NCBI GenBank assembly: GCA_000002445.1
Contig: CP000069.1
Location: 64,001 to 128,000, forward strand
Direction of reading: 5' to 3'
Length of the DNA: 64,000 bases
Source: Trypanosoma brucei
Taxonomy: Eukaryota
Every line of letters starts with the position of its first letter. The stretch's first letter is position 1. Under the pieces are notes generated by a model. That model did no database searches and had not been told where the DNA came from. It was given only the letters and a program-made list of their open reading frames with translations. Shown here one piece after another: positions 6,552 to 60,950 of this stretch. The position numbers and the translations under genes are program-made.

Positions 6552-6564
6552 GGGGGGGGGGGGG
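6552..6564. repeat. G13 homopolymer, followed by C6, in the ingi 5' flank.
   Basis: Read directly from the sequence: 'cgcggggggggggggtgccatcccccc'. Confidence 0.8.
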
Positions 6565-37600: not shown

Positions 37601-40600
37601 ATGGCGGTTAACATAGTTGTGACTGCTAATTCCCGCGGCAGTTTACATTCATACTCTGGCACGCAGTGGGCCTGATTGCTGGGGTAATTGTTAGCGCGGC
37701 TCCAATATGGCTTACGACATCTTTTCTCAGCCCAAATTGAGTATTTTACCATTAAGATCCCCACTGACTTGCGTCTTGAGGCTTTAATTGCACAAGCGAG
37801 CCTCAACTCCGACAATGTAGACGTGTGGACCTACACCACGTGCAGTAAGTTTTACAGCATCACGTGTTGCATATTGACCGATGTTTGCGAAGTGCTCCAT
37901 TTGTGCGATTCACTACCCAGGTACGACGATACTGATCAAGTTCAAATTACACGAGCCGTTCAAAACCCGTTGAACAACTCAACGCTATTGCTGTTCCCTT
38001 TCACATAACCTACAAAAGTTTCTTTTTTTTTCTTATTGTAACCACAACCGATCGTGGTTCGTCCCGGTCATCCATTGCTGGGCTTGCTGGGCATTAATGT
38101 CATGTTATTAATGACATAAACAACGAATCATCGTCGCTTTAACTCGTGCTACAACACGGTTGCGCGGCTGGCGAGGCACCTCGACGGATGACACACTTGC
38201 ATTCAGACTACCAAACAGGCGTTGAAGTTATAACCTCAATACCATGTGATTTTATGGAAGCTTTCTTGCATCATTTCAACCTTAACCTCACCATCAGGGT
38301 ATTTCAATGTGTGCGTACATCATTTTCAAGCCAACGGATCGCTGGATTTCCTATTTTTCCACCTATTTATCATGACATGACATCAATCAAGACATGTAGC
38401 TATCACATATTCGATAGGGACTCACATTTTTTTTTTCACCACCGTCAAAAGGAGACGACTGGATCAAAGTCGTTTGTTGTGCGTTTAGAAACAACCCCAA
38501 ACAAAATAAAGCGTTCGTGCCTGCCATCCGCTGCCCTAATTTCAAGTGCTCATTCATGGCAGTCAGTGTATGGGCAACGCCCACCCCGCGTCGAGTGATG
38601 CGTGCCCACTAAATCTGTTCCATTTGCCGCATCTAATTATCCTTCGCATTATCTCTTATGATGACAAGTGTTCTTTTTGACTACGGGGACGCCACAATCA
38701 CTTACATCAGCGAGCGGATATTTACACTGCTTGCAATTTCCAACTCTTCGTCCTGTCATGCTGTGGAAGAATTCCGTTGATAAGCCGCCTCTCGTTTTTT
38801 TGTCCCGCCCAACTCCTTGCTGTGCCGCATATCACCAAGTCCTGAAAAGGCAACACAGTTTTGTTCGTGATTAAGGCAGCGACGGAGGCCTTAGGAAAAA
38901 CAGCGTCGACACGACGGACAATGTTAAGAGCGAGCTAGCCCCACATTTATTTCCAATAAAAAGACTACGGATCGTATTTTGAACCAAACAATGAGACGTG
39001 TCAACCGCTTAAGTGTTCTTACGAGTGCGGCGAGAAGGTACAGCACATCATAAATTTAATGCGACACTCCACAGCGGAAAGATATCGTGGAATATGAAGG
39101 GATTCCACTGTGCCAAAGAACTGAAAAAACCCGAGATTAATACATTATATACCTAGACGATAACAATATCAAATGCACTGTGCGGCCTCCACGGCATATG
39201 TACATATATATGTTAACGTAGCAACTGTAAATTCATACGATGGCGGTTCAAGAAGCGCTGGGGATGCAGGGTCTCGGTCCTGACGAGTGGACTTCGTAGC
39301 GTAGAGCGCAAATTATTTTCCGACACCCGTCCACATAGCAAAAACAAACGATAATGAACCTGGAATCGAGTCGTCACGATGACGAGTACGCTTCAAGTTT
39401 AAGCCACTAAGGACTCACCAAACGGACACTTACACTTGTGGCTCTGCATTTGTCATCCATTCTTTTTGTACGGGGGAAGATGGCTTAGGACTTCATACGA
39501 CGTTCCCGATTCGAAAGTCTCCTAGCATAATCCCTTTAGGTATTGTTCATAATTTGGCGCACGCCACTTCGACGAATCGTTGACATTCTAAAGATAGTGT
39601 TGTGCCAACAGCATACAGATAATGTGAATACTTCACCAATCCGACCACAAATAATCTTCCTCTTTTATTTTGACTCCTACTTGTTCATCACTGTTTTCTT
39701 CCAAACATAAACATCGCATGAGCAGACTAACACATTAATCGCATACATGTGAAATAACAAAACAACATTCAATATAAACCCTTCACATCTTGAAAACATC
39801 AAACAACTCCCCGCCCTTGAGAGAAGTGCTGAAGATAATATCATCCATTATTGTTGTCATGAGCTTCACAGTTAAATGTTCTCTGGTCAAATGTTGTTGG
39901 AATAGTGATGGAGTGACTGTTGATGGAATGTGTGTCCAACAGGGGCTGCATCAGGATGCACTTTGTCAGTAAATGAATAATGTTACCGCGCAGCAGATTG
40001 TTCAAGATTATTTCTCCAATAACGGCACATCTGCCCTCCCCACAGATATAAGGATGTACAAACATCCTGTCCAGGCCCACAGCACGTGGGGATGCGTTGG
40101 TTGCCCATGACATGCAAAGCGCCAAGAGCCCTCGCATCCGGAAGAAAGCACAAACAGCGAATACACGTAGTGTAAGCACTTTAAATGTAGCAATAAGAGA
40201 ACCGACCGTTGCATGTTCTCGCGTGTGGAGCGGTCAACAGCAGCAAAAAGACAGTGAATTACATATACGATCAACTTAATAAACAATTGACACCCACTTT
40301 ATGTCTGTAAAACAGCAAATGTACAGATGTTCAATCAAACGACACCATCATCCTTAAACAAACTTTGTCTCCATACCACAGTGGTACAGACTATTGAAAT
40401 TGAAAGGAGCGATGTCACTTCATCTTCGTTTTACCTGTCGTGGCGTTGACGATGGTTGAAAGTGCATCCTGCACAGACTCGGAACACACAAGCTGATTCT
40501 CAAATGTGATAGAGACGCCCGTCGCGGACTAAGAGAAGCAATTGTTTCTAGTACAGAACAACGTGTCGTTTTTAAATAGCACAAACCTTATCGGGGTTAT

Positions 40601-41271
40601 AAAAGCGTTCCAGCACACTTCAACCGCTTCACATCGACACGAAACACTATCTTGTTGGCTGCACGGCAAGTAAACGTCATCTGTGGTAGTTGGAATCACA
40701 CGGATGCGGGTTTTGATAGGGTGACCAATTTCGCTTTCATCCACTTCGCCATTCAGTATAACGACATTCATTATTCTCGAAAGCTTCGGCATGAGACAGT
40801 ACATCTATTGCTGAAGGGAGTTACGTACCTCGCAGCGGCCTATTGGTAGAGCGCACATCTTCCCCTAGGGTGCGGGAGAATGTTATATCAACGGCATGTG
40901 ACATTTCAGCAGGAAAAAAGCGCAACAGTTTCTTTCTATTTTCTCACATCAGTAAGAAAATGGTGAGAGCACCCGGTCTGTTTATCGCAAACACTATGTG
41001 TAAGGCGGCGTGGTGGTTGGCACGCAAAGTTCCATCACCAACAGCCTGGCGCTCCCGAAAGCTGTTAGGCTGCGTCTACCCTCTTCGTTCATCAGTAGAT
41101 GCTATAACTAACATGCGTTTAAAAAGTACGCGCGGGGTTCCCTTCCTTTTCGTTCACACCCCAACCGAACGCCCCGGCGCCTATTCACTTCCCGCACCGC
41201 GCGTTTGCCGCAGGAATGCCTTTCAATCGCCCGAGAGTTTGTGATTGTTAACCTCCATGCCATGGTCAATT

Positions 41272-41284
41272 CCCCCCCCCCCCC
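41272..41284. repeat. C13 homopolymer inside a GC-rich island (about 41250-42100) within an otherwise AT-rich ORF-free stretch.
   Basis: Read directly from the sequence: 'tcaattccccccccccccaggatc'. Confidence 0.8.
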
Positions 41285-44200
41285 AGGATCACAACCAAAT
41301 GTTCAGCGGAGGACTCAAACAACGACGGCCAACCCTCCACGCAGCAGCCACCTCTTCAGTAACGGGGGTTTCCTCTTTTATTGTCGGGGCATTTGCGGAC
41401 TTCAGAGGCGAGGGGGAGTGTCGAATGAAGGGTCCCAGTTTGAGTAATCACTTCGTGGGAAACAAAAGCACCTGGCGGGCAATCGGAACCTGCCGCAAAA
41501 AAAATTGCTCCACGTCCGCGCCACCTCGAATGAAATGCTGTGGGTGGGGAGGGCACCTCGGTTCGCAAGAGGGAATGCATAGCGGCAACCAACGGTCGGG
41601 TGCTTGGTGGGCGGCTCTCGCCAGGGAGGCGGCGACTGCCATGAAAACTTGAGAGGGAATATTTAGTGCCTCCAACCGCCCCTGCGGCAGTGTGAGTAAA
41701 GGCGGCGCGCGGGTTTAAGGCAGGGGGCGGAGGCCCGGAAGGACAATGGGCACCTCAGCTAAGATGCGGCAGCGGCTGTCGGTGGGCGGTAATTTATGAC
41801 TTCTAGTTTAGCCCCTCTGGCGGGACCGTTTTCTCCGGGGTTCATGTGCGGCGCAACCTGTTGATTGGCAGTTGTATGGAGTGCGCTTTCTGCGGTATAG
41901 CTTCTGGGGGGAGGGGGTGGGTTCTCGGATCCTCGTTCCGGACTGCAGTGGCGTCGCTTGCCGATACGTTGCTGTCGTTGCGCGGTTCGGTGCTCTCAAT
42001 ATGCGGATATTCCCATGGTAACGCCTTCACCGGCTGCTCATTTTGACAGTGCAGGCCAGCAGCCCTTTCAGGAGATGCTCGCCTGCCAGACCACCGCCTT
42101 CGGTTTCGTCTCACATCCCTTGAGGTATGGGATATTTAAAATGCCTCACTTGTTTGATCTTACTGACGCTTTAAGCGAGACTGGGGGACTGTTGAGACCT
42201 TTTGAAGCGCGCAGTGCAGCTGTCAGTGTGAATGTTGCAAGTGCCTGTATGAGGAGAGTGGCTGGAGTGAGCGACGTCATAGTAAGGCCGAGTAGGCTTA
42301 GTGTATGTATCTTTTCATGCATGTATGCGTTTGCGTATCGGAAAAGAGGGGGCAAATAGGCTGTCCGCTTTTATGTTCTGCACATTTGAGTGTATGCGAG
42401 CAAGGCCGGTTTTTATTTTTTGCCCATAACGTCTTTGCTATTTTTGTTTTTGTTTTCTCGTGTGGTTTCCATCATTACTAATAGGTGTTATGCAGTCAAC
42501 TAGGCACTTTGAGAACGCAAAGCGTTTGGATGCATGCACTCGCATAAACCCATCATGGGGATAAATGGATAATGCAACGTCAGCGGATAAGTCCGGAGTC
42601 TAGATGTGTGATTGGAAATAATAACGGGAAGGTTTCTTGGGAAAGGATGAAAGAACCGCCAGTGTTTGGTTCCCGGGATAGGATCGGTGAGAGCAATAGT
42701 TAATAAATTGCATAATGTAGGTGTCAGATCAGAGATGGGGGGAGGCCAAGCTGTCAACCAAGCTTGTGGGGTAAATTGAGAAAAAGATGTGTGTGGGGAA
42801 TGTGAATGGAAAACACGTCTCTCTATGAGTGTTTGCATTTTGCAGAAAGAGTGAAAGAGGTGTAAATACAGGGCAAGGGCCGAGGTGTCTGCTACCAATG
42901 GAAGGTCCTTACCTGAGTGTATCCACCATTTCTGCTGTTGTTGCAGTTGTTGCAGTTGTTGCTTTCTGTGAAAAAAAAATACACAAAGGAATACTGTAAT
43001 GTGTTTCCACCTTGTTTTAACTCCAGAGTATGCATGCCCTCGCGGAACTCCTACACCTCATGGCGATACGTTCAACCTGAGTCCTGCAACAGTTGTCATA
43101 ATATTAATAATAATTAGTGTTCAAGTTGTCTATCTTTTTTTTCTCATGTAACGAATGAATGTTGAAGTGCAGCCACTGAACCAAAAGATGTGTCCCGGGT
43201 TTCCATTTTTTCTTTTTTTCTTTTTGTTGCAGTCTTCGCGTGTGACCATATTGGGTTTATGTGTAGTTCGTTTGCTTAAGGAGAAAATCGGAGGGAAATG
43301 AAAGATCGGATATCCATAGTCGTCTGCATCAAACTCCAACGATTTAAATATATAACTCTGTTATTTATTGAGTTTTCCTTCTAAAAAAGAAGGATACTAC
43401 TCTACCGTGATGCATCAGGTATCCGTGAAATATGAAGGACAGGATCGCTAAGATTTTTTTTTTTGAACACAACATTGCCTGTTATTTTCTGTAGGAAGAA
43501 TTAGAGGTATTCGGACGTCCTTCACGTAAAGTAGCACTGGTACGTCAACCTAATCTCGTTGTTTTGGTAATTGTTTCTACTGTTTTTATCTGTGTTGGTG
43601 TTCGCGATATCTCCCCTTTCATCTATGCAACTTTATTTGAGGTTCGTGTGATAATGTTCTTCGTACAGGAGCATTTCGTTAGTTTATTAACTTCCCTGTT
43701 ATCATTTACTTTCGCAAAATATTTGTTGATGTTTTTGATGCAGCATTTTCTGTAATTTGTTAGGACTACCCACTGAAAATTTGTCGGTTGACGGCACCCG
43801 ACCACCTCGACATATGACCGGTCAGTTACGTCACTCGTTATCAGTTGTCATCGCTTTTTCTAAAAAAAAAACCTTAAACCCCAGCACCATGAATGCCACT
43901 GTTTGTTAGTGCCGGATGCGGCGGTAGGAGTAAGAGTTCGTTTTTTAAAAATTAATGAACGCCAATAAGCAACGCTGCCATTTTCCTTGCGGTTATCACG
44001 CATAGTTTTTGTTCCTATTTATTTGATTACCTGTATACGTGTATGTATATGTGCTCATTTTGTTTTCTCTCAGTGGCTATTAGTTTTTTGTATGCACATT
44101 TAGGAAGTGTTTATAATGGGTTGTAACAGAGGCAAGCGCGTGTACATTCATGACAACATGTTGATTTGTGTGCAAGTGGAATAAAAAGAGCTGAATAGAC

Positions 44201-47200
44201 GAACGTTTAGGTGGAGCTGCAGGAACAAAGTGGCCCAGTCGTGAACGAAAAAAAGGAAGTAAATAACGTGAAGGCAACGGTCATATCATGCCACGTGCAG
44301 TTTCCTCAAGGCGTTGGTGGGGGCTTCGACGTACAATCGCTAGCGAGTTTTTGGTAGATGAAGGAAATGCTCTTGTCTTCGTTAATACTGAATTCCCTGC
44401 GGAAACCAAGACCGATTGACATAACGACTCATGGTGGCTTCTCTCTGGAGGTGAAGATAGGTAATACAGTAGCAGCTGTCGGATATCTTCAATGTGCAAT
44501 GGCTGTATTCGCTGAGGTGACTCCTTTTTTTTTTTTTGTAAAGCGTTCTAGTGCTGTCAACAATCTCGACGAGATGTCAGGGTCTATTGCCATGCTGAAG
44601 CAGAGGTGTGTATATGGGGTCAAGTGCTCACGACCCTTTCCATCAGGATTAGGTTGAGGTGTAAAGAGACACATTATCTTTCCACAATGGTGCACATACG
44701 ATAGGTTTGTAACTGGATATGTGCTGCCCTTGCAAGGGCTGTATCTTTGTGCAGGCCCAACATCATCAAATTTGTCTATATCGAATTACATTACAGTTTA
44801 AGCTTAGAGATGAGTACTGGGCGCATCGCACGTGGCTCCCGGTGGAACTTTGCTGGGACTCTTACAGTCAAGTTACTCTACACTTGGTGACATGCTGGCT
44901 TGGGAAGGAATCACCTTCTGTCTACTTTGTTGTGTCACGATTCCCCCCTCTGGAGATGGTTTGGTTCCATCTTCTTAGTTCTATTAGCACACTGGCTCTA
45001 ACCATGGCTTAAAAAATGGAGACGTATGTAGTCTCCGCTCTCGGAGACCTGCTGATGGAGGTTGGTGCCACGACGGTTTTTGCACGTAAGTTTTTTTTTT
45101 TGGCTGAAACACGTTCTACGCATTCCCTTCAACTAGTCTTCATTTCCGTTCGTTCCCCCCTGACGGGGAAGGCACTGCAGCGAAACGACCAGACAACGCA
45201 TTCAGGTCTGTCCCAAAGTAAAAGGTATGGATCGGAACTCAACTGTTTGATGTAAGATCAGTCTGCTCTTCCTTGTAGCAAGGAGGATTCGGTGACCCAA
45301 TGCCGTATGGACAATAAATGCAATACCAAGAGCATGGGGAGGTGCACCGAATATAACCGCGGGTGGGGTATTAGTTCCGTACCTCATGTAAATATCTAAA
45401 AATAAAATAAAAGAAACTTGTCGTCGTATATTGGACGCGTCAGAGTACGGTTGATGGTGTTTACGGCATCGTATTCTTTAGTGGATATGTGACCTTGAAT
45501 GAACTACTGGTGATAGCACAACACCTAACACAAGCCCTGTTTTTGTGAAAGTATGCCCGTTGGTCAGATCTAAAACCTCACCGTAAAGGTGAATGTCAAT
45601 CAGGTTGACGGATTGGGAAAATATTTAAGCCCACACAGGGGGACACTTGCAAATATTTATTCGCGATGCAGTTATTATTGCAGATAGATATGGAGAGAAA
45701 TATTGGAACCACTTTTGGAGTAAATAGTTGGCCGAAACGAAAAATAAGACAAAGCATTTCACAACCAACGTTGAACGAATCCACCTCACGATACGGAAGT
45801 GAATACACATGGTTGCGCTCGCCTCCAAAGCGGCAATGTGGCGGAAACTACGACGTGACCGTAGAAGGCTGGAGTAAATGGAATATTCTGCGGGAGGCGT
45901 CTGATTTGCACCGCCTTTTCGATCTAACCGGCAAGGGTTAACAAAATAATGACGCAACACTTGGAAGTACATCCCATGAGTGTAGCAGAGAAAAAGGTGT
46001 CATAGATATGCCAATATGTTATTCCACTTGGCAAGGAGTTTCTACATACCCCGCTGGATATGCAAACTTGCTTGTAAGGGTGGTATCCGTACGCTACTTC
46101 TGTTGGTGAGAGGTGATGTCGTACCGAACTCGGGCACAATTGTACACATCGCAGTGGGATGCTGAGGATCCCTTCCAGCTGAAAAGATTCGCGTCGGAAA
46201 AATGTCTTTACCCAAAAATTTTTAAAAAAGGTAGCCTTTGCATTTTTTCAGGCAACATGTTTGTGTGCCGAAGTAGTGTGACGTGCAACAAGACCGGGGT
46301 GCCAACACATCGGAATAGTGGAATCGTTTAAAGGCTTCACCAGTGTTGATACTTGCAGGGAATGCTGAGCGTGGAGCACAAGGGCCAGGTAAAAAAATGC
46401 GAGAGTGTGAAGGAGAGTCAGTTAGGCTGATATTCACACAACATCTATGACTTATGTGACAGCGTTATTTCTCTAAAGTTAACCACGGTATCAAGACTGA
46501 TGCTGCACGCTTTGTAGTGAGGAGGGTAGCAATTGAATATCGAAGTGAATATGAATTCGCTGCGTTTGTTGATATCACGAGGAGGCGACGAGGCAGGACA
46601 AAACAAAGCAAAAAAGACAGAAGAGGCCACCGATTTGTTATTTCCCTCGCTGTATCTATAAGACGGTATTGCGTGGATAAAGTGCGGGATCCTGAAGCTG
46701 GCACGAAGGCAGACGGTGGGGGGGGGTAAAAAAAAGGATGGAGTGAAGACTGGTATTCCAATTGACGGGGTGTCGCCCCCCCCTCCCCCTCCCCCAAGTA
46801 GCTGAGTGATTGCATTTGATTTAAATGCGGCTCTCAGTGGGCTGGTCTTTACGCCTTTGGGCTCACGTCTGGGGGAGGGGTTAATCCCCTTTCGCATTCG
46901 GTCTTGGAGCCACAGTGTGTGCATTGTAACGAATTCAGCGAACCACTCATTCATCGGTGAGGTTAGGAGGGGGGGAGGGCAGGGCGTGTGTTTACGCAGT
47001 GGTTTTGTGTTTTCCTGCTTGTATTTGCTTCAGGCTCAATTTGTCCCTTTACTATGCGAGATCTATGTGCCCAGTAAAAACTCACATGTGGCCGGAAGGT
47101 TCCCAACAATATGAGATTATGTGAAGAGTTGTCTAGAGCGGCAGGTGTCATTAGTGGCACTCATCATGGAAGGCTGCGAGTTCTGTTCTGTCCCGTTCTG

Positions 47201-47815
47201 GGAGGGGCGGGTGGCTCAACCCCTTGCGGGAAGAAGCATAAAAAAGAATGATCCACATTATTCACAATGACGGCAATGGTGCTTTTCACGGACAGTTCGT
47301 ATGACCATTCTGTCGCTCAAATCTTCCTTTCCTTTTCCTTTTCCTCCTTTTTTCTCCCTCCCCCGCCATTGTAAGTTTTCCTATGCTTGCGGGCGTCGGG
47401 AAAGGAAACGTGAGGGATTGTGGATGAAGTGAGCATTCGATGGTACGTATAACTTCCCTCGGGGCGTTCCCCATGTCCTAAGTAAGGGAGACGCATAGTC
47501 TGAGTATGTTATACGTAACTTTTTCTACTAACAGCTGCAAACTGTACCTACGAGGGTGCCATGAGGCCAAAGTTAACTGTAGCCTCGGGAACTCCCCACA
47601 TGACAACATAACGGTCCATGAATTGGTTGCCACACCGCTGGGGGACAACGGTGAACTTGATATAAACTTGAAACATCATTGGTTAAGTGGAGTTTGTACA
47701 GTCACCAAAATAACGGTTTGCCATTTTTTTTTTGTTCAAACCATCAAAGAACCGCAATCGTTGGGTTCTTTCCCTTTTCATATGCATGAGACTCTCTCTC
47801 TAGTCTTCCTTTCAT

Positions 47816-47866
47816 ATTATATTATATTATTATTATTATTATTTTTTTACCCCTGCACCTTTTAGA
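47816..47866 (+). promoter_or_regulatory. Polypyrimidine tract, including an (ATT)n/T-rich run, plus an AG dinucleotide. This is a candidate spliced-leader acceptor for the ENT transporter gene.
   Basis: The run 'attatattatattattattattatttttttacccctgcaccttttag' has its AG at 47864-47865, 45 nt upstream of the ATG at 47910. A second pyrimidine tract lies further upstream at 47322-47375. Confidence 0.45.
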
Positions 47867-47909
47867 AAAGTATACGGTGAAACCTCAACAAGTTGCGCAA
47901 GTAAGGTCG

Positions 47910-49301
47910 ATGCTCGGTTTTTATTCAGTACCTGAATTTGTCGTTTACGTCACCTTCATCTTTTTTGGGATGTCGGTGATGAATGTGACGAATGCCATCT
48001 ATTCGATACCATTTTTCTTTAAGGAGTACTACAAGTTTGCTCAGGGGGACGCTGATGTACAGCCGAAGGACGAAGGCTTTTGGAAGCACATGTTCACGTA
48101 CTACAATGTCGTTGTGTACACTATGCAGGTGCTTTTGGAGGCCTTCATGCTTACGCCACTGGGAAGAAGGTTTCCAATACGCTGGCGGCTCACCTTTGGT
48201 CTGGCGGTTCCTATCGTGGAGATCATTGTGATTTTAGTGATCCCTGTGGTCCGCACAAGCGAGGACGCGGCAAAGGCGGCTATGATGATGATCGCCTTCA
48301 TTGGTGGTGTTTCGAAGACATTGTGTGACTCTGGTAATGCCGCACTTGTAGGGCCGTTTCCCACCAAGTTCTACGGTGCCGTCGTTTGGGGTCTCGGTAT
48401 ATCCGGGCTTCTCACCTCATTCATGTCTATTATCATCAAGGTATCTATGGACGATAGCTTTTCCAGCTTGCTTACACAGTCGCGGATATACTTTGGACTA
48501 ATTATGCTTCTTCAGGTGATCGCGTGCATTCTTCTAGTTTTACTGAGGAAGAACCCCTACGCCATGAGGTATGCTGCAGAGTTAAGGTTTGACGCAAAGA
48601 AGAGTGGTACAAAGGACTCCAACGGTTTAGTCGACGTAGCCGATGCGAGAGGAACTGGTCCTGCAGACGAGGAATGCGAACGTGAGGCGGATGAAAGGTC
48701 TGACATAAATGTGATGAATGCCACGACAGATCCAGATACAATGAGAGATACCGACCAGTTGGAAAATATGACTAACGCAAAACAAATGTTGGACGCGAGT
48801 GTTATGGTTGTGGCAAAGCGTATTTGGCCCATGCTTGTTTCCTGTTTCTTTGTGTTCTTTGCAACACTTCTCGTCTTCCCTGGTGTGTTCTTTGCTGTCA
48901 AGACGGATGTTCCCAGTGGGTGGTATTTCACCATCGTCGCTGCGATGTACAACTTGGGTGACTTCCTATCTCGCCTTGTCCTTCAGTTCAAGCGGTTGCA
49001 CCCTTCGCCACGTGGCGTTGTGATCGGAACCTTTTCGCGTTTGTTGGTTATTCCACTGCTTGCACTTTGCGTGTACGATGTTATTAGTGGCCCGTGGGTC
49101 CCTTATGTTCTTTGCCTTATTTGGGGCCTTACGAATGGCTACTTTGGCGGCATGTCGATGATTTATGGACCGCGTACCGGATCCCTTACAACAGCGGGCC
49201 AGAGGTCCCTTGCTGCCATTTGCATTAATTTGGCCCTTCTTCTTGGCCTCTTCGGTGGTGCCATGTCTGCCATGGCGGTTATAAAAGCTCTTCCGCATTA
49301 A
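47910..49301 (+). CDS. Equilibrative nucleoside/nucleobase transporter (ENT family, TbNT/AT-like), 463 aa, intact.
   Basis: The track lists the ORF from 47877, but that codon is GTG. The first ATG, at 47910, gives an 'MLGF...' N-terminus. There are about 11 hydrophobic segments. A long hydrophilic loop sits between TM6 and TM7: 'RKNPYAMRYAAELRFDAKKSGTKDS...DQLENMTNAKQ'. The motifs 'FIFFGMSVMNVTNAIYSIPFFFKEYYKF' and 'MYNLGDFLSR' match my memory of trypanosomatid ENT transporters. I could not assign it to a named paralogue. Confidence 0.75.
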   Translation: MLGFYSVPEFVVYVTFIFFGMSVMNVTNAIYSIPFFFKEYYKFAQGDADVQPKDEGFWKHMFTYYNVVVYTMQVLLEAFMLTPLGRRFPIRWRLTFGLAVPIVEIIVILVIPVVRTSEDAAKAAMMMIAFIGGVSKTLCDSGNAALVGPFPTKFYGAVVWGLGISGLLTSFMSIIIKVSMDDSFSSLLTQSRIYFGLIMLLQVIACILLVLLRKNPYAMRYAAELRFDAKKSGTKDSNGLVDVADARGTGPADEECEREADERSDINVMNATTDPDTMRDTDQLENMTNAKQMLDASVMVVAKRIWPMLVSCFFVFFATLLVFPGVFFAVKTDVPSGWYFTIVAAMYNLGDFLSRLVLQFKRLHPSPRGVVIGTFSRLLVIPLLALCVYDVISGPWVPYVLCLIWGLTNGYFGGMSMIYGPRTGSLTTAGQRSLAAICINLALLLGLFGGAMSAMAVIKALPH

Positions 49302-49354
49302 TTACAGCTGAAATAACAGTGTGACATCCACAAAATATGCCATTGATGTCGTTA

Positions 49355-49448
49355 TCACTTTATTGTTATCATTTTATTGTTATCATTTTATTGTTACCAT
49401 TTTATTTATTATTTATTATTATTATTTTTTTTTTTTTGGGGGGGGGGG
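49355..49448. repeat. A 15-nt tandem repeat (CATTTTATTGTTAT, about 3.5 copies), followed by an ATT-rich run, then T13 (49425-49437) directly abutting G11 (49438-49448).
   Basis: Read directly from the sequence. Confidence 0.85.
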
Positions 49449-51061
49449 TACGGGGTTAGGGGCGTTGATACGGAGGAAAAAAAAGGGAGAGGATGCAAAG
49501 GGAAGTGATGAACCGAAGTTAAAGCAGAGGAGAAAAGGACAAAAGCAACAACAACAACCCACACCCACGCCCACATGAGGTAAAAGGAGAAAAGAAACGC
49601 ATCAGAAGGCGAGGAAAAGAACGGTAGGAAATAGATAGCGATTTGGTGGAGGTCCCTTTAAAATTTTTTTATCTTTTATTTTTTTAACTTTCCCGAGCAA
49701 GTAAGGTAGGTGAGGAAAGACTTAGGAAGAGAAGTGACCCAGCGGAAAGAAAAGGAAAAAGAAAGGAAAAAGAAAAGAAAAGAAGACGATGCATGAAGTA
49801 TCATTATTGTACTTTTAATATCCGAACGCATATGAGTTTTATCCAATTTATTTATTATTTTATTTCTAACGTTGCTCCGCTTTTCTTTATTCCCAGTTTT
49901 TTTTGGTTTTCTATAATCTGGTTTCATTTTTTTTTTTCAACTTTCTCTGACCCTTCTTTGCCGTTTTAATGGGAGGACAACATATATAATAATAACAGTA
50001 ATGACAATAATAACGACAATAGTGACAAATCGGAGAAAAGAGATTCAATATAATGATGTTTTGGGTAAATTGCAGAATATGTTTTATAACTTGTGCAATT
50101 TACTTCCCCCATTTTAATATTTAACCTCTTTTACGGTTATTAATCTCATGAAGTGACAAAACATCAATATATAAAGAAATAAATCTAAATAAATGTGTTT
50201 GCTAATTAATTTAATTATTATTGTTATTTTTTACTTTGTGATAAGGAAATAAGGGGTATGAAAAGGACAAAAAAGTTTCGTGATTGTGAGTGTCTTGAAG
50301 GTGATGATAACAGTGGTGTGTGCCAAATGATGAATACACAAATCAGGTCTTGACATATTTAAAAATATAAAATGTCACAAAGTAAAGCTTTTTCGTTTCC
50401 TATTCTTTTATTCCTTTTACTTTATTTTATTTCATTCCCTTACTTTCTTTCTTTCAACTCATATAAGTAAATAAAAATATATTTATTTAATAGTTTGATT
50501 TATTGTATCCTCTTTATTATTATTATTTTATTTTAAAATAATGTCTTTTTTTTTCTTTTTTTTCTTTTGTTTCCATTTTTGTTTCATCCAATCATTTATT
50601 TTTTTCTTCCTCATTTTTACTGACGCATGCGGGTTGGTGATGTGTGGGGAGTGCTGCAAATAAAACAAACGAAACCTAAAACTCATCGAGGACTCTGTTG
50701 TTTCAAATGCACTTTTGTTGGTGTTTTCAAAATAATCTTATGATGCTGTTAGCTTTACTCTTCATTTCATTTCATTCCATCTCTCTTTACTTCACGTTGC
50801 ATTTATTCATTGATTTAGTTTGATACTTCTACATTTTTTCTTTTCCTTCCAAGTGTGGAATATTCGAGTTCAATGGAAAATAAAAGCTGGGATAAATGAG
50901 GGGCAAATGATGAGCAAGAAATGCCATGTGAAGTCACTAGTAATCGAAATGTGGATGTACGTCGGTTCAGCTTCCCTTAAAACGCTCTTTAACAAATAAT
51001 CCGCTGGCGATATAGACAGAAGTAATTTCTCCATGAGGAGGGAGACGTGCACACACAAACG

Positions 51062-51195
51062 ACAACAACAACAACAACAACAATAAAATTGCGACTTGTA
51101 CACTTGATTTTGTATGGGAGGAAAAAGAGATGAAAATGTTAAATAATTGAGTGTTGTTAGTCTCGTGATAGAAAGGGTGTGTGTGTGTGTGTGTG
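51062..51195. repeat. Two microsatellites in the AT-rich, ORF-free region downstream of the ENT gene: (CAA)7 at about 51062-51084 and (GT)9 at 51177-51195.
   Basis: Read directly from the sequence. Confidence 0.85.
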
Positions 51196-51474
51196 GGCAA
51201 AATGAGGAAACTGGAATAACTTAATATCTTATGGAAATGAAATGGGAGACCTTGTAGCTGAGGTAGGTGGATTATTAATTGAAGTTAATGAAGGTGAAAG
51301 GAATGTGAGGGAAGTACTACCAACTACCCTTGTGGAAACAAATAAATGTAATGCAGCTATCACAGGGATTCGCAGAACTGTGTGCAATGACATTAGGGCA
51401 GTAAAGAATGCAAATGACTGCAAACGCGGCCGCCGAAGATTTGGCACAACCTGTACACGATCTTAGTGGAAAAG

Positions 51475-54400
51475 GATGTACAACCCGATGCTTTTTACCA
51501 ACCGTATTTGAGAGAGAAAAAAAATCCATTCTCCTGGTTAGTAGAGTTTGACGCTATAGCTGTGGAAAGTTAAATTATTATGGTTCTACATTTTATGCCA
51601 AGGAAAGGAAAATACTTTAGCAGCCGAAAGGTGGGATTTGGCCACGGAAAAAATGGAACTTGAGTGCCGAGAGAGTATTGGAATCCATACCCATGAATAA
51701 AAAAATCCGAAACCCTCAAGTGCGTGGGTTACGGAATAGAAAGAGGGCAATTGGATGTGGTTTTAGATCCCATGAAAACAATAAATAAAGGAACGTACTC
51801 TAAATCTCTCCAGCCAACAAAGACACTGGTAAACGTCATGATCATTATAGTAAAACCTCTGAGTCATGATCCGGTTACTGTGCTGTGGGCTTCAGAGACA
51901 AATCACATCGCAAAATGCATTTGGACGCAGCCAACATGAGAACATGTGGCTCCGATACCGAGAAGGTCCTGCGATTTCTCGAGAAAGCCCAATTTAGAGT
52001 TAGAATAGGTTAGGCCCTGTCTTCTCTTTATTGTGAGTATGCAATTCGCAAAAAACATTACAACGCAGCATACAGGAACTTTATTGTAAATGATGGCGGC
52101 CAGAGCAACGCCAGTTCATATGCATCTTTCAGTTCTACAGAGAAAAGCCGCGGAATCTCCAGTAAAACAAACCCAGCCAATGCAGAAATGGGAAATCCAT
52201 CCAAAATGCGATTCACTGGACAACGTAAGAAATCGAGTGGTCATGCATTTGGTTTGGATTACTACCAGTTGGTGGAAAGGGATATAGCTTTACTGCGGAA
52301 GGAAAATCTTATCGCACATCTTCATGACAAGGATGCCATCATTGTGGATTAGGGAGCTCTCACAATAACTTTCAATACTGATCCGTACAGGGCAGTGTGA
52401 GGCACGCGGTTATCGCAGTTGGGGGATATCAAAAAGTTTTTGAGTCTGTGGGAAGGAATAACGGCACTCAGCAGTCAATTTGTCAAAAAGACACTAAAAC
52501 CTTACGGAATGACGGCGCCTTCAACAAAAAGGGGAGAACTTTCACCTTCACGCAACAGCAGTAGTCGCAATAGAGAACGATTTGGAATCCCGCATTTTAG
52601 CAGAAATGTGAAAGCATGTAAACACCAAGGAATTTCCTCGCAACACCGCTCGCCATCTCGAGTTGCGGGCTGACGTATGAAACGGTTCAGGAAGTTTAAC
52701 AGCACTAATGTAAAGATGTTTGATGAATGGGCAGCTTTCTCGTAGTTGATTTCACAGCCCACGAGGAAAGTAGCGGGACACGTCTTCATTCCAGAGGCTC
52801 AGCATTTTGTTATTTGCTCATCAAATTAAAGTGACTTCGGAGACTCAGCAGCAGCAGAACTTTCCGGTACAACAGATAGATGCGACTAGGTTATCACTGC
52901 ATTGGGTTAGAGAGAGAGACCTAACATCCAGTCTCGACGGCGATATGATGAAATGTAGCAAATTACGCGTAAAGCCCCGAAGCGTAGGAAGATTGGGAAC
53001 AATAACCGAAATTGACTGTTTCCAAAGTAGATGCATTTATTTTGGAGACTCATCATGGGATGGGTAGTGCCAGCTTTACAGTGATGAAGGGGAAGCCAAG
53101 TCACGAGTAGATGTTTTATCACACGGCCAAAGCTGATAAATAACCATGATAATTATGAAACCATGGCTTCATTAGAGCACGTGTCCCGTTATTTGGGCGC
53201 AGTTTGCAATAAAGCTGCAGCATTCATCTTTGACTCAAAGGCTCCGTTTCTTTCTTTCAGGTGGAACTTGTAGCGTATATTTGCGCATGTCTCCGGTTGC
53301 CAAACGAAGAATGGAAAACTTGTGGAACCAATCCATCTTTCAATGGGTCATGAATATGGTTCAGGATATCCTACACACGATTATACTCAGGCCCCGGAAA
53401 GAGACACAGAAGTGGCTTAACGAAAATGTGCCGCACCGCATCGCTAAAAACATGTGCGAACTTATAACATTCGCATAAAGTGTATTACAGAAAGTCATCA
53501 AGGAGTTGGAGTGTAATGATAAGGGAGCATATGGTACAATACAGTGCCATGGTGGGGAAGAGAAAACTCTTCGCAGAATACAATTTCATATGGGTTCACA
53601 TTTATCACAAGAGAAAAATATGTTGCCACTTGGTCTTCCATAGAAAAATGAGAGTAGGAAAACTCATGAAGGCCTCTTCGATGGAAAAAACAAAAACGAG
53701 AAAACAGTTGAAGAACATAATATCCCGCATGATGTACACGGCAGACGTACGAGGAAATTCTCTATTCCAACAACATTATCTCTTTTTGAAGGTGGTGCGC
53801 CGACGACCTTTAAAGCTCAATACATGATTATTGGAGGAAACTGATTCGACTCACCTTTCATCGCATTCCATGAAGAGAAAACAACAGTGGCTTAATATAT
53901 TTCTTAACAGCGAGTATGTCAATTCACCGAGTTATTTACCAACACCATCCAAATTATTCGCAGGCACCTCAATGAAAGATTGGGAAGCAATACCGTTTAG
54001 GGTTAGTGGGAAGTTATGAGCCCCAGGAGGACCAGTGGGCGCAACCACATTTTTGTGTTTCGCAGGTGGAGGCGAGAGCAGTAGACTTGAAATTACAAAC
54101 CCTTGAAGGAAACCCGCTCCCAAATGCTTTACGTATGCGTTGGTAACACGCCACGGCCAAGCACGTCATGAAAAGAATGAAATACACATTTCGATGTTTC
54201 GGCAAGTGGAACGCGCCTCGTGAACAAAACATTGCTGGAGGGAAATATCGTGGTCAGCTGGGGCGACGTTGCATCGACAGACAACCCCGCAGACGGCATT
54301 TCTTCGGGTGGGCCGGTTATGCCCAGAAGTTGCGAAAGGGTGTGGGGCAGGTGAAGCACACGCTTTCAGCAATTCCTTGCCGTAACTAAAATCCTTAACA

Positions 54401-57400
54401 TAACATATTGATTTACCATTTCTTTTTCAGCAAACGGGTCCACTGTTGTTCAATTTACGAGAGCAGTCTGCTTATCGTTTCCTCACCATTTTTTTTTTCG
54501 GCATGGGGTATGTAAGAAAATGAGTATTATTTTATCACCTTAACTCGGGCAGGCTGTTGGTGAGTTATAAATATCCGTGCAACCCCGCAAGTTGCTGCTA
54601 ACTTATCCCACTCACAAGGAAGCTCACCGCAACCGCTCTCGTCATTCCCCAATGAAAGAAAGAACAGGATCAATGGCACATTAGCACACACACACAAACA
54701 AACAAACACGTATATGTATTTCATGTGCGTTGCTGCTTCTTTCCTGCAAGGAAGTATTTAAGTGTGATGTGGGGCAAGAGTTTGGATTGTTTCTTATTTC
54801 AGTGCCGCAGTCGCTTGTTTGTTGTTTTGTTTCCGCCAGCGTTTACCTCGGCTAATGCGTCTCGGCTCTTAATAATTTCTGTTGTGCCCTTCGCCTTTTG
54901 TGTGGCTGCCTGGCTGGCTGTTCCTCTCATATACTTCTTAAAGGCGCTTTCCAGACAGGAAAAGTTTCCCCTTGGGCACGAATGTCGCATAGCACATGCA
55001 GTGGAAGAAGGGCGTAAGAACATGCGCGACGGAAGAACCGAATCTCATCCAGTTCCGCTTTCTCTTTTTTTTTCTCCTTTGTACCCTACTTTACTTGCAA
55101 ACGCCGCAATCATGTGGAAACACTTGGTCCCCTCTTATGACATCAATCATCTGCCTTTTGGGATGCATTGTCACTCCTCCCTTTTCCTTCATTCATCTTC
55201 GTGTTGTTGCGTCGTCACTCACTCATCCGGTTAGACACACCCTCCACATCCATTCGCACCATTTTCCTCATATTCCGAGTCTCATGCAGCAGAGAGCATG
55301 TATTTATCCATTTTATTTCTTTCCTTGGGTCCACCCAACAGGTTTCGTGTTTGGACCGTAACACAAATTTCATTTCCTGGTCGCAACCCAAACGCCGTTC
55401 GCGATCAGACGAGTTTCAATTCCGGGTAATGGGCCCCTTTCCACTTTGAAATGATTGAACCCTCTTTTTCGCACTTCCAATGGTTGCTGCCACCGTCACC
55501 ACACCTTCTCCACGTAGCGTTGGAAAGAAGTAAGGAATAATAAAAACGCATCTGAGCAACGCAGCAGCGATCAGCCAGTGGACCTCATCAGAGTTTGTGC
55601 CTCCAATCTCATTCCCAAACCAAAAAATTAATCGGGCCCGCATGCGGCACGAGGCGTCCGGCGACTACGGGGGTTTACAAAAGAAGGAAAGTGATGTAAC
55701 AAAAGGAGTTACATAAACATCGCGACCGCACGCACTCCGGCCATACAGGGCTGGAAAATTAATAAAACAACCCGCTCAGGGATAACAATTGTCCTTGAGG
55801 GAAAAAGGTTGGATGCCTGCAGCCGCACGAGTTCCGCTGCGATTCAGGTGAGTTTATCCTTTCCCCCTGAAGGTCGACAGTGTTTCCCTCCATTTGTTCC
55901 CTTCCCAAATAATATCTTCAGCACGTAGCAGTATTTTTGATATTCCAAAGCGGCTGCCAGTGCGTACACTCCTGCATGGGGGGAAAAGCCCCAAGTGAGG
56001 GCGGCAGATATGCGCAAGTAACAATCAGAGCCCATGCACGCAAACACACATGATGTAAAGGGAAACATGTAACAGGTATGCCAAATGCTCAGTTGAGGTT
56101 ACACACTGCAGCGACGTAGACGCTCCCTCCCGCCACAACTCGCCGTAGCTCCTCATCGCACAGTTAAAATGTCAAGGGTTCAGTCTTGAATTACCACAAA
56201 ATACGGATAAATGAGGTTTGCCCCTATAAAGGAGCGGCATTTCTGCACTCCCCTCGAGTGTCCAAACAGTGTTGTAAATAACAGAAGGATATTATAGGCT
56301 CAGCAATATTAACAGAGTGAACGTGTTACAAAACTCCCTCACAATAAAATAATTAGTATAAGCTGCAATAACTGCGACGGTGAGGGAACTTTGTTATACT
56401 GCGAGGCAACGCGGGTTTCAGTACATAACTAAGCTCATGCATCGACATCACACTCTGGAGGGAATGGAGGCAATCACATACCTTAAATCCTTACGGCAAC
56501 ACAAATGAGTGAAGGGAAAGAAAGCATGCAACTGGTGAAACAACATGTAACATCAGCAATGCAGAGGGTGATAAGGGTTGTATATCCGAAGAGAGAGATA
56601 CAACAGCCCACATAACACCCAACACATACAAACACACATGCAACATAACACTCATTATGAAAAAATATTTAAAGACACCGCTAGCATTAAGTGGATTCAA
56701 AAAGAAAAACGTGACGCAGACACACACGGAAACACAGTTTTGTACCCAAAAGGTTGCGGGATTGGGCGTGAGAGGTGGAATTTAAAAAAATAAAATAAAA
56801 TAGTCATGCACTCGCACGCTTAAGGACAGACGTGTTGAAAAAGAAATGTTTCACCTTATTTTTCTTAAAGCCTCAAATGGCAAGGACACAAATAAAAAAG
56901 AGAGCCCTTAGGGAAAGTACATAGCTAATCCCGTTTTGTGATTACTCACAGAACAAAAACGTTTTGGTTAAATTAGAAGAAATGTTGAGCCGTCCTGTCT
57001 TCCATAAGTGTCGGATTTGGAACAGTAAGAAACCAACCGGCGCTGACACGGCAAAACACATGCATGTGTTAATTCAGTGTCTTGAAAGACAACGCACGTG
57101 TAATCTAACAGAGGGCATGTTCCCTCTTAAGATTAGTATGTGCTTTAATGCAGAGGCAGCAGCCACCAAAAATAGAATGTAAAAAATGTAATAATAAATA
57201 GATGGCAAAAGATAAAAATAGATACAAAAGACAAACCCTACCGAGACTACGTTAAAATTCACTAACAACTACTACAATCGGTATGCTAATTAACTTTTCC
57301 GCCGAGTAAAACTAAGAGATTTGTACGCTTTATGACGTGCAACAGTACCACTAATGTAACGACGGAAGCGGACACCCAAAGTGGCCTTCTCTGAAATGTG

Positions 57401-58457
57401 AACCAACGAATGGAACAATTATGATTGAGCCCTCTTCAGTACTCACAGAAGCTTCACTGCTTCCACTTTGAGCGCTACGGTCAGCGACACGCCCAACCTT
57501 AACTGCAATGCGACGCACCACTTCCTCACAGTAGGCGTCATCCCACTCGAATGCGGCTTCACGGGGAAGAGGCACACGCCAACGCTCACAAAGCGACGCC
57601 AGAAGATTCCCCCGTTGCGCTGCTTTAAAAGTTCGGAAAACAGACTGCAGTGAGTTCAATATCGATTGTGCTGATTCACTCAGCTCGGCACGTGAAGAAC
57701 TGTGGTCGCTTGTGGAGGTTGTCGTGCCATCCTCGTCTTCATCAAAGAATTCGCGATCCAGCCGTAATGCAGCAAAGTTGCGGCCAGGCACGGCATTCAA
57801 CTGGTACATTTCCACAGGATCATTCACGCCACGAAGTGCAACATCACCAAGTGCAGTGACATCAATTTGCTCACGCTCCTCAGCTGACAGTGACATGTAA
57901 ACCTCATGCGTCATCAGCACCTGACCACCATTTGCTACACTCTCTGTCCTTTCTGCCATGTTTGGAGTCCGCCCATAGTAGTCATATCCCTTCGTCACTT
58001 CATCGTGTCGGATGTCGCACAACCCGGTGTGGATTCCAACACGTACACGCAGGCCATTCCACAAACGACTGTACACTTTGAGGTCCAACCGCGCAGTTGG
58101 CGGTGTGTACTTCTCGTCCTCCTCCGCACGCTGCTGCTCCAACTGCTGGTAAGAATCATCAATCGCATTTGTTCCCCAGTCATGATGCAAGAAACACAGC
58201 TGTAGTTCCTGTGCGAGTTGGACGGCAGCGAAAGGACTCTTACTCGCTATCATGAACGAATCCCCAACAGTTTTGACTTCGTAGCACTTATACCTCCCAA
58301 TCAGTGAACGAATCAAATAGTGATGTGTCGCAACGGCATCAGGCATCAGCTCAGGGTGTGCAGCCCACAACGCAGTGCTGCTCTCAATGTCAGTAAATAT
58401 TAGTGTCACGGGGTCAGTTTGTTCCTTGGGTGCAAGATTGTTATCACGGGCATTCCG
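51475..58457. repeat. Right arm of the inverted duplication, the reverse-complement copy of 24363-31345. It covers the 3' flank and the catalytic/C-terminal coding part of GRESAG4 copy 3.
   Basis: Same evidence as the left arm. The protein from 57351-58583 is near-identical to the copy 2 C-terminal 400 aa, including an identical 'FVGSHFREGHFGCPLPSLH' tail. Confidence 0.9.
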
Positions 58458-60950
58458 GTGTGTTGCTAATATAACAACCACAAGAACCGTAACAAGCGGC
58501 ACCAACATTACGACGAAGCCAACTGCAATAGCGGCAATTTGCTCAGTCATCTGTTGGATCCATCTCGGTTCATCATAGGTCACTCACAGTGTGGCAGACG
58601 ACAGCGCAGAGGACACAAAAGGGTTTAGAACATGTGACATCGACCATACAAAAATATGCATCCCACCACCGTTGACAACAGTGCTTCGCCTCAAGTCAAG
58701 TTTCGTTCGTACACTTGTCTCCAAACGACCCATACATTGCAGGACACTTCCCATTGCGTATGCGATGGCAGACCCAAGTAGTGACAATGGCTTCCACTTC
58801 GACTCATTCTGCACGATCTTGCGGAACTCACGTACTGTTTTGGACTCCGTGATCTTATCCCTCCGATGTGACAGATTCGTTGCGAATAGCAAGGGGTTAG
58901 AAAATGGCTTTTCATGGAAGGCACTCACGAGTTCGCCGTGGATTGGTGCATCATCGAAGAATAGGACAAAGACGTGCACATTACGGTGTTTGTTAGGGTG
59001 AAAGAGGATTATGGGGATATTATATGGGATAAGACCTACAACCAATACCTGACATGCAGTTGACAGCTTGTCTCTCAAATTAGGACCTTCACCACTCGCA
59101 ACAAAGAAGCTTAGTGATGTGTTAAAGTTGTCAAGTGTTTTTGCAACATATTCCTAATTCCTCTCGTATCACCACCACGACACACAATGACATGCATTCT
59201 TCCTGCACCATTTTGTATAATATGCTCAACTATCATAAATAACTGCTGCTCATTTGTTGGTAACAGGTGGATCACATTCCTTCTGGGGTTACTCGGTTGT
59301 GATGTGAGTATTATAGGATCGATGAATGCCATACCCTTCGTCCGCAGTAACGAATTATCCACGACACCAAACACAGCAGTTACAACTCGTTTCTCAACAT
59401 CATTATACAGAGTTGCAGAAGCTTCGTAAGATTTCGAGGATAGTCAGTGTAAAAAGAAACCATCAGAGTGACCCAGTTGACCTTTGCCAACAACATGAGG
59501 GACACCATCGTATACCATCTATGCAGCACGCAGTGCCTTTGGGTCATCGGTTATATTAAACATGACCCCACTCAATGGGCCATACAACTGTGGCAGGTCT
59601 CGATAACAGCGAGATGAACCAAGGGTTAATATAGCTTCCTTCATAGGGTGTAGATGGAGATCCTTTTCCACCTTCTTCATGCACATCACACTCCCACCTT
59701 GGTTACGTAAACACGATACACCCCGCTCTCCCGCCATATTACGGCACTCACCACCAAAGTCACCAACCACAATATTATCAATTGGATAACGACGTTTATT
59801 GTACAGTGATTTCATAAATACACCCCTGCTAGTTAGCTATTCGTGACAACTCAGTGCCTGTTTCAATACCTCTCCAGCAACCCATCTGTTCAATGTCAGC
59901 TCAGCTTCAGCGTCTTGCTCGGTGAAGTTATTTTCGTTAATATCCCACCTTGTGCGCTTATAGTTATTACCATTAACCTTTAACAACATAGTCATATCAT
60001 CCCTGAAACGCCTGACAGCTTTGTATGTGTCACCCTTCGTAATTAGGTCAGCCCCAGTTATTATTATTTTATCAGCCACAAACTCGTCTCTGCCCAATTT
60101 ATATGCCCACTTGTTCTTGACGGCGTGTTGGAGTGCAGAGGGTGTATGAATAAATATTCGCCTCTCGTCCTGTGGTCATATAATCATTTCATGGGGAATC
60201 TCTTCATATCAGGGATTGGAGAACCAAATACAATCACTCCCTGAGGTCCAGTATCGGCAACCTTATTCCACTCCGCACTGAAGCTACTGTTATCCGATTC
60301 CTTACCAATTTGACTCTTCAATGCAAAAAAATAACAACTAAACAACTTGCGATTCATCCGTGTTGCCAACTACGCAGCAAGCTTATACTCATCATCACCA
60401 TAAGAAACATCTTTCAAATACATGAAATCCAGTCGGTGTGACCGTAACTGAGTGATAGCATAACGGAAAAGAGCAAGCATCTCAACGGCGAGTGATGCTT
60501 CCAGGAGTCATAAATTGGGATTCCAACTGTGTACCCTACTGAATCCTGTGAAGGGCAAAAAATCAACTACACATTCTTTTCATTGAAATATTTGGTTAAG
60601 TTGAGAGTATTTTTGTCACCCACAGGTTCCAGTATAATGGCAAGCTCATCACCGTAATTGGTTGTACAGATGGCGTATCCAAAGTCATCCATAGACGAAA
60701 CATGTGCAACTGCCACACTGACACACGGAAGCGACTTTCCGTTGGTAATAGATGCGTTGAAGCCTGCAGTAATAGGATCAAATACCTTTGCTGAAATCTT
60801 GTCACTGTATAACATGTTGTATACCCTTACCCATATTAATCCATTTGCAAGCTATACTTCAGCCAGCAGCTGTAGTAATATAGAAAAACACCACGTAAGT
60901 GACTACGCCATCTCTAGCATGTAATTCACGCATGGAGGTAACCGTGATAC
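57351..60950 (-). pseudogene. GRESAG4: GRESAG4 copy 3, a mosaic pseudogene. The TM, catalytic and C-terminal part (57351-58583) is an intact ORF. The extracellular domain is broken into at least six out-of-frame pieces.
   Basis: Minus-strand fragments at 58584-59078, 59111-59374, 59519-59815, 59837-60097, 60184-60369 and 60567-60815 are homologous to, but clearly diverged from, the extracellular domains of copies 1 and 2. They lie in shifting frames. The catalytic domain carries an A-to-E change in 'GRTPNMAERTESV'. The N-terminal end is estimated. Confidence 0.8.

Follow-up and report, generated by a model that had tools for sequence, protein, structure and literature searches.

A transporter gene between the arms of an inverted repeat on Trypanosoma brucei chromosome 6 is identified as TbNT9

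We analysed a 64,000-nucleotide stretch of Trypanosoma brucei DNA (positions 64,001 to 128,000 of contig CP000069.1; hereafter the window, in which all positions are counted) with attention to one gene, at 47910-49301. Our conclusion, to which we assign a probability of about 0.97, is that this is the single-copy TbNT9 gene (Tb927.6.220) of chromosome 6 in T. b. brucei TREU927, encoding a P1-class carrier of the ENT/SLC29 family. Trypanosomes are unable to make purines and therefore need purine salvage, and the P1 class imports purine nucleosides. TbNT9 is already known, being annotated in the reference genome and named, with its kinetics and expression published, and the find, correct but ordinary, carries little weight as a discovery.

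An earlier reading of the bare letters (the first-pass annotation) had described an intact ENT-family transporter gene, set apart in a segment rich in cyclases, retroposons and pseudogenes, and had left the paralogue unnamed. TbNT9 can serve as a calibration of that reading, which from raw sequence got right the ENT family, the non-P2 character and the repeat architecture. The interest that it attached to the gene is not sustained, the gene being the reference-genome copy of one that was cloned and kinetically characterised in 2007, as cited in PMC9960827.

Identity of the gene

A homology search matched the window's open reading frame (ORF) to XP_845152.1 / AAZ11593.1 / UniProt Q581D7 at 100% identity, over 463 of 463 amino acids and with 100% coverage. 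XP_845152.1, a T. b. brucei TREU927 protein, carries the annotation 'adenosine transporter 1, putative' and lies on a contig of 1,618,915 bp, to which the exact matches of the two neighbouring cyclases also belong; the window is thus part of TREU927 chromosome 6. The UniProt header of Q581D7 reads GN=Tb927.6.220 (supplement of PMC4969678), and Tb927.6.220 is the 'purine nucleoside transporter, TbNT9' of PMC3998935 and PMC7952579; since the match to Q581D7 is exact, the ORF is TbNT9. The hitherto unnamed paralogue is thereby named.

Each feature defining the ENT family and TbNT9 that could be tested was found in the window gene, and orthology to P2/TbAT1 was not. The location on chromosome 6 beside GRESAG4 genes agrees as well, in that the adjacent receptor-type adenylate cyclases, copies 1 and 2 of GRESAG4 in the window, hold the accessions preceding AAZ11593.1. 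The three accessions AAZ11591, AAZ11592 and AAZ11593 (copy 1, copy 2 and TbNT9) are consecutive, and therefore no GenBank-annotated protein gene lies between copy 2 and TbNT9, which bears out the isolated setting described for the gene. We found nothing that contradicts the identification. TbNT9 also goes by the name AT-D, and Al-Salabi et al. reportedly cloned it and characterised it in yeast, in Mol Pharmacol in 2007.

Gene model

The ORF runs from an ATG at 47910 through 463 codons to a TAA at 49299-49301, so that the gene is intact, as had been described; an ORF of this length within 64 kb is far beyond chance. The mechanical ORF list gives a version of 474 amino acids that starts at a GTG at 47877, and this extension is an effect of the bacterial start rule only. 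TbAT1 and NT10, both paralogues, have their N-termini at the aligned MLGF, which supports the ATG at 47910.

Upstream of the start codon lies a pyrimidine-rich tract of 60 nucleotides (47804-47863; 77% C/T, rising to 86% over the last 22 nucleotides), and the first AG after it, at 47864-47865, is a putative spliced-leader acceptor. Trans-splicing of the TbNT9 transcript near 47864/47865 would leave a 5' untranslated region (UTR) of 44 nucleotides, and there is no additional ATG between this putative acceptor and 47910. No entry for a spliced-leader site of Tb927.6.220 occurs in the searched parts of the supplements to Kolev 2010 and Nilsson 2010.

Downstream of the stop codon, a 14-nucleotide tandem repeat of GTTATCATTTTATT (5.8 copies) occupies part of 49351-49560, followed by a T run, a G run, a purine-rich stretch and then an AT-rich kilobase (50000-50900; GC content 0.29). 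These two stretches are possibly the 3' UTR and the end of a convergent zone, and transcription would be expected to end in that zone, between 49.3 and 57.3 kb.

Family membership and predicted structure

The protein matches Pfam PF01733 (Nucleoside_tran) with 111.7 bits (E=5.9e-32), well above the curated cut-off of 29.8 bits, and its residues 125-454 cover positions 1-304 of the 309 in the profile. A profile built from 25 trypanosomatid ENTs and searched against PDB sequences found PfENT1 (7WN0 and others; E ~5e-11) and human ENT1 (6OB6; E=3e-7).

An AlphaFold2 model, built on the same alignment of trypanosomatid ENTs, has a mean predicted local distance difference test score (pLDDT) of 83.8 and a predicted template-modelling score (pTM) of 0.85. 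Long helices 1-6 span residues 7-32, 61-79, 90-114, 118-147, 152-179 and 184-212, and long helices 7-11 span residues 298-321, 338-357, 367-388, 397-419 and 429-460. The loop at residues 235-262, between transmembrane helices (TM) 6 and 7, is of low confidence or disordered in the model. Eleven helices with a large TM6-TM7 loop constitute the ENT topology, as far as the prediction goes; a crude hydropathy scan resolved nine distinct hydrophobic peaks.

Compared with PDB by Foldseek, the model had human ENT1 (hENT1; 6OB6, 6OB7 and 8TZI) at ranks 1-4, with E ~3e-12, template-modelling scores (TM-scores) of 0.85-0.89 and root-mean-square deviations of 2.6-3.5; the best single match was 6OB6, with a TM-score of 0.89. 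PfENT1 stood at rank 5, followed by sugar transporters of the major facilitator superfamily at E>=2.6e-6. Taken together, the Pfam match, the profile, the fold and the tree agree on the ENT family, and the best matches did not lie in any other family.

The motif Asn/Gln-x-x-Asp-x-x-x-Arg of TM8 is present in TbNT9 (Y347-N348...D351...R355). All 25 trypanosomatid ENTs share D351 and R355, and nearly all share N348; the trypanosomatid consensus F-N-x-G-D-F-L-S-R aligns with F-Q-V-F-D-F-L-S-R of PfENT1. The role of this motif in substrate binding is known from the structures of hENT1 and PfENT1.

Four otherwise conserved positions set TbNT9 apart from at least 23 of the 24 other trypanosomatid ENTs: F88 (I in the others), A120 (G), L225 (F) and Y347 (F), with codons at 48171, 48267, 48582 and 48948 of the window, respectively. 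Y347 directly precedes the N-x-x-D-x-x-x-R motif of TM8 and may be the residue that makes the extra contact with the adenosine 6-amino group proposed in the literature for TbNT9.

Two limits attach to our reading of the gene and its locus, neither of which contradicts it. A single-sequence phmmer search against PDB gave no match at E<=1e-3, and the link to solved ENT structures therefore needs a profile or fold comparison. Further, TbNT9 would be the last functional gene of the polycistronic unit to which GRESAG4 copy 2 belongs on the plus strand, an assignment that we infer, because a geneless stretch of 22 kb separates TbNT9 from copy 2.

Placement among trypanosome nucleoside transporters

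TbNT9 is 68-71% identical to the NT2-7 genes of chromosome 2, 68% to NT10, the chromosome 9 gene that clusters with TcoAT1, and 63% to TcoAT1 itself. Identity falls to 56% for TbAT1/P2 and likewise for a chromosome 3 paralogue, and to 50% for a paralogue of 482 amino acids. In a neighbour-joining tree with 100 bootstraps, TbNT9 is sister to the chromosome 2 NT2-7 cluster (bootstrap 86), and together they join NT10/TcoAT1 in a P1 clade (bootstrap 82) apart from AT1/NT11/NT12; TbAT1 was grouped with the chromosome 3 and 482-amino-acid paralogues. TbNT9 is thus a P1-type carrier and not the P2/TbAT1 drug carrier, in agreement with the published P1/P2 division and with the earlier impression that the gene was not obviously P2/AT1. 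Some caution attaches to the P1 grouping, in that a maximum-likelihood tree did not separate P1 from P2 statistically (PMC3862423).

Individual residues were of no help in naming the paralogue. F19, D140 and F316, modelled as ligand contacts of TbAT1 (PMC4755147), are present in TbNT9, yet they are common to nearly all paralogues and therefore do not discriminate P1 from P2. The lack of an obvious match at P2 positions that the first-pass annotation mentioned is accordingly usable neither way: for these three residues it does not hold, and the residues that do match are nearly universal. We also rejected the wider set of TbAT1 positions (F19, D140, A178, G181, D239, N286, F316, L380 and P462) as a means of naming the gene, these being resistance alleles or family-wide residues that do not discriminate.

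No orthologue of NT9 from T. congolense or T. vivax appeared among the homology matches, and PMC9960827 describes TcoAT1 as the only nucleoside transporter of T. congolense. On these grounds NT9 looks like a duplicate that arose in the Trypanozoon lineage.

Reported function and expression

For TbNT9, table 10 of PMC9960827 gives, after Al-Salabi et al. 2007, an adenosine Km of 0.068 uM, and it lists inhibition constants (Ki) of 2.75 uM for inosine, 6.2 uM for guanosine, 148 uM for adenine and 320 uM for hypoxanthine. The affinity of TbNT9 for adenosine is unusually high, with a preference of roughly 40-fold; that for inosine and guanosine is lower, and nucleobases are recognised very weakly. 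In trypanosomatids, according to PMC9960827, ENT transport is coupled to protons and accumulates purines, and in the brucei group a single P2 carrier stands beside several of the P1 type.

Expression is regulated by stage. The mRNA of TbNT9 stands at 316 reads per kilobase per million mapped reads (RPKM) in salivary-gland parasites versus 24 RPKM in blood forms, about 13-fold higher, and the protein is listed in a tsetse salivary-gland proteome. NT3, NT4 and NT6 have the opposite bias, being 46-126-fold higher in bloodstream forms.

P1-type carriers are described as an entry route for nucleoside-analogue drug candidates that bypasses the resistance-prone P2 (PMC9960827). The presence, intactness and orientation of TbNT9 in field strains, T. 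evansi and T. equiperdum would inform such drug work, and in this respect the gene is of modest interest.

Strain distribution

In a database of 5.8 billion proteins, the 90%-identity cluster of TbNT9 has one member, that of TREU927, and no match fell between 71% and 100% identity. Among the annotated proteins of T. b. gambiense DAL972, T. equiperdum OVI and T. b. equiperdum there is no orthologue or fragment above 71%, although the other ENT paralogues are represented. Neither Tb927.6.200-230 in the T. evansi genome supplements nor orthologue gene IDs in other strains were found. We do not read this absence from proteomes as gene loss: either the region is unassembled in the DAL972 and T. equiperdum genomes, or TbNT9 is variably present. 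In T. equiperdum OVI the adjacent cyclase occurs only as a fragment of 181 amino acids on a 1.3-kb contig. In DAL972 the procyclin locus of chromosome 6 is reached by Tbg972.6.140, versus Tb927.6.450 in TREU927, and this early arrival of the gene numbering suggests that the TbNT9 region was not assembled there.

Such a distribution, together with a broken cyclase gene, a broken leucine-rich-repeat (LRR) gene and 22 kb of geneless DNA upstream, could be taken to mean that TbNT9 is a decaying or silent relic in a degenerate, subtelomere-like segment, non-functional in vivo or lost or pseudogenised in other strains. We regard this as very unlikely. The ORF is intact over its 463 codons and keeps all family-invariant residues; its mRNA is detected and stage-regulated, and the protein appears in a proteome listing; the carrier was functional on heterologous expression, according to the kinetics quoted in PMC9960827; and its absence elsewhere is possibly an assembly problem, as the OVI fragment and the DAL972 numbering indicate.

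A more novel reading would have TbNT9 polymorphic within Trypanozoon in presence or orientation, which we consider unlikely. If it were true, loss or inversion of the gene could be tolerated, or even selected, in tsetse-independent lineages. This is conceivable because TbNT9 mRNA is enriched in the salivary-gland stage, because no orthologue was found in other strains and because a 7-kb repeat brackets the gene, and it would resemble the decay that has been reported for procyclin-associated genes of T. evansi.

Genomic setting and the inverted repeat

The features of the window are collected in Table 1. TbNT9 lies in the spacer of an inverted repeat, as had been described; 16.6 kb separate the left arm from the start of the gene, and 2.2 kb lie between its stop and the right arm. 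The repeat was found by blastn as one match of 6,989 bp (24363-31345 versus 58457-51472) at 98.9% identity; the 76 differences in 6,988 columns are spread over its length, and its ends are sharp, identity dropping to about 28% within 300 bp outside either end. The left arm begins inside an intact cyclase gene and the right arm inside a cyclase pseudogene, and the composition of the arms suggests a duplication or gene conversion of a unit of 'catalytic domain plus 3' flank' between the two.

Table 1. Positions, strands and supporting evidence of the features in the window.
Feature	Position	Strand	Evidence or remark
Degenerate tandem repeats	1-430	.	periods of 10-69 nt reported for the array
Ingi-type non-LTR (long terminal repeat) retroposon, near-full-length	5725-1002	-	endonuclease, reverse transcriptase, RNase H and C2H2 domains
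GRESAG4 copy 1, intact, 1211 amino acids from ATG 11831	8196..11831	-	Pfam; exact match to XP_845150.1/AAZ11591.1
GRESAG4 copy 2, intact receptor-type adenylate cyclase, 1254 amino acids	21705..25469	+	Pfam; exact match to XP_845151.1/AAZ11592.1
Left arm of inverted repeat	24363..31345	+	from about codon 886 of copy 2, before the catalytic domain; 5.9 kb of 3' flank
Spacer, 20.1 kb	31346..51471	.	TbNT9, LRR pseudogene, otherwise no ORF with a Pfam match
LRR protein pseudogene, three consecutive ORF fragments (145, 117 and 217 amino acids)	32775..34481	-	LRR_4 and LRR_Zer-1 matches; internal repeats
Pyrimidine-rich tract and first AG, putative spliced-leader acceptor	47804..47865	+	sequence counts
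TbNT9 (Tb927.6.220) coding sequence, ENT/SLC29-family purine nucleoside transporter	47910..49301	+	ORF, Pfam, 100% identity, AlphaFold2, Foldseek
Right arm of inverted repeat	51472..58457	-	catalytic-domain and C-terminal part of copy 3
GRESAG4 copy 3, pseudogene	57351..60836	-	tblastn pieces; in-frame stop at 58584-58586
GRESAG4 copy 4, C-terminal 648 codons, cut by window end	62013..>64000	-	96% identical to TREU927 XP_845158.1

Arms that are long, nearly identical and sharply bounded are a good substrate for homologous recombination, and the same features point to a recent duplication or gene conversion. It might be proposed that the spacer is invertible through the 7-kb repeat and that flipping alters the orientation of TbNT9 and so its expression; the first-pass annotation had pointed out that recombination between the arms would invert the gene relative to surrounding transcription. 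The geometry is as stated; the relevance to this locus is not borne out, no inversion being documented, and the proposal amounts to conjecture. We judge it highly improbable, since no inverted isoform was seen and the lone independent sequence, a contig described below, has the left junction as in the window. Moreover, in either arm a cyclase gene that points inward has its 3' end, and an inversion would therefore probably place TbNT9 behind a near-identical arm in the other converging unit, rather than simply antisense.

Near-identical 7-kb repeats in regions of multigene families are a classic cause of misassembly, and the inverted repeat, and hence the 'isolated' setting of TbNT9, might itself be an assembly artefact. 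The chance of this is slighter still. The 76 scattered differences suffice to distinguish the arms, and the independent contig is colinear with the window over a stretch that starts 2.3 kb upstream of copy 2, takes in the left arm completely and reaches 4.1 kb into the spacer. This contig, NW_017386323.1, is a 17.4-kb sequence of the Schistosoma mansoni RefSeq assembly GCF_000237925.1, whose positions 1-16064 correspond to 19404-35471 of the window at 99.6% identity and cross the junction of left arm and spacer in the same orientation. Its colinearity argues against a misassembled left junction, and nothing in the contig points to an inverted isoform.

It looks like this S. mansoni assembly (GCF_000237925.1) is contaminated with T. 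brucei DNA, as judged by sequence identity. The S. mansoni RefSeq protein XP_018644553.1 (Smp_112590) has one mismatch in 1254 amino acids to GRESAG4 copy 2, XP_018644076.1 is identical to copy 1 from the 41st codon of the latter onward (8199-11789, minus strand), and XP_018644084.1 is a third protein of this T. brucei GRESAG4 group.

Neighbouring genes and pseudogenes

As far as could be tested, TbNT9 is the only intact gene in the window outside the GRESAG4 family, which upholds the earlier description; the other long ORFs belong to a split ingi element and to broken LRR and cyclase genes. Its nearest upstream gene on the same strand is GRESAG4 copy 2, 22.4 kb 5' of the ATG and divergent from copy 1. 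The interval between copy 2 and TbNT9 (25470-47909), without an annotated protein gene, exceeds what is usual within a polycistronic unit of trypanosomes. Within it, 41001-42000 has a GC content of 0.58, and three successive plus-strand ORFs of about 133 amino acids (40843-42359) have no Pfam match. The LRR pseudogene is antisense to the strand of TbNT9.

On the other side, TbNT9 is convergent with GRESAG4 copies 3 and 4 on the minus strand, as claimed for it, with the qualification that copy 3 is a pseudogene and copy 4 runs off the window. Homologous pieces of copy 3 fall in at least three further frames, and only the ORF of 410 amino acids for the catalytic domain is open. The in-frame stop of copy 3 lies just outside the repeat arm and the catalytic-domain part within the arm is open, while the N-terminal homology is spread across several frames at 29-45% identity to copies 1 and 2. 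No tRNA gene or Rfam family was found in the window, and no tRNA or small nuclear RNA gene marks the convergent zone.

Of the surroundings once called rich in cyclases, retroposons and pseudogenes, the cyclases and pseudogenes are confirmed. The sole retroposon detected lies at 1-6 kb, at the left window end and 42 kb from TbNT9; its coding region is split into ORFs of 1161 and 438 amino acids in different frames with an overlap of 79 nucleotides. In tblastn searches of the window with ENT, ingi and LRR proteins as queries, neither additional ENT fragments nor additional ingi-like coding remnants came to light, and 'retroposon-rich' therefore fits only the left window end. There, the repeat block at 1-430 adjoins the retroposon and has units of 29, 58 or 69 nucleotides on TGCAATTATACGCAATAATG-like motifs, and at 6.0-6.9 kb the sequence is GC-rich and carries ORFs, on both strands, that overlap one another and have no Pfam match. 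Besides the LRR fragments, the longest remaining ORFs of the spacer, the arms and the divergent region at 12-21 kb gave no match to Pfam.

Comparison with known transporters

TbAT1/P2 (Tb927.5.286b) shares with TbNT9 the ENT family, the length of 463 amino acids and the residues F19, D140 and F316. These likenesses, and the GenBank/UniProt label 'adenosine transporter 1, putative', might suggest that the gene is, or duplicates, an aminopurine and drug transporter of the P2/TbAT1 type, directly relevant to diamidine and arsenical uptake; the probability of this is negligible and the suggestion is effectively refuted, given that the three residues do not discriminate, that identity to the P1-type NT2-7 and NT10 exceeds that to TbAT1 and the tree places the gene in the P1 clade, and that, according to PMC9960827, the Ki values for adenine and inosine are P1-like and a single gene encodes P2. 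According to the literature, TbAT1/P2 recognises adenine and diamidines, whereas for TbNT9 inosine is an inhibitor and adenine hardly one.

Within the P1 class, the TbNT2-NT7 array holds the closest paralogues of TbNT9 and its sister group in the tree, with a predicted P1 substrate class like that of TbNT9. The array is a tandem one on chromosome 2, alternating with iron/ascorbate oxidoreductase genes, whereas TbNT9 is a lone gene, and the reported adenosine affinity of TbNT9 is much higher than that of TbNT2-NT7. TbNT10/AT-B and TcoAT1/TcoNT10 also belong to the P1 clade and are, as TbNT9 is, high-affinity purine nucleoside carriers; TbNT10 lies on chromosome 9 with a syntenic orthologue in T. 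congolense, and TbNT9 on chromosome 6.

Human ENT1 (SLC29A1, PDB 6OB6) and PfENT1 (PDB 7WN0) have their fold and the TM8 motif in common with TbNT9 at a sequence identity of about 15%. The trypanosomatid ENTs are proton symporters and not equilibrative carriers, according to PMC9960827. With TbNT9/AT-D (Tb927.6.220) itself the comparison yields no difference, protein, chromosome and neighbours being the same, and the gene in the window is TbNT9.

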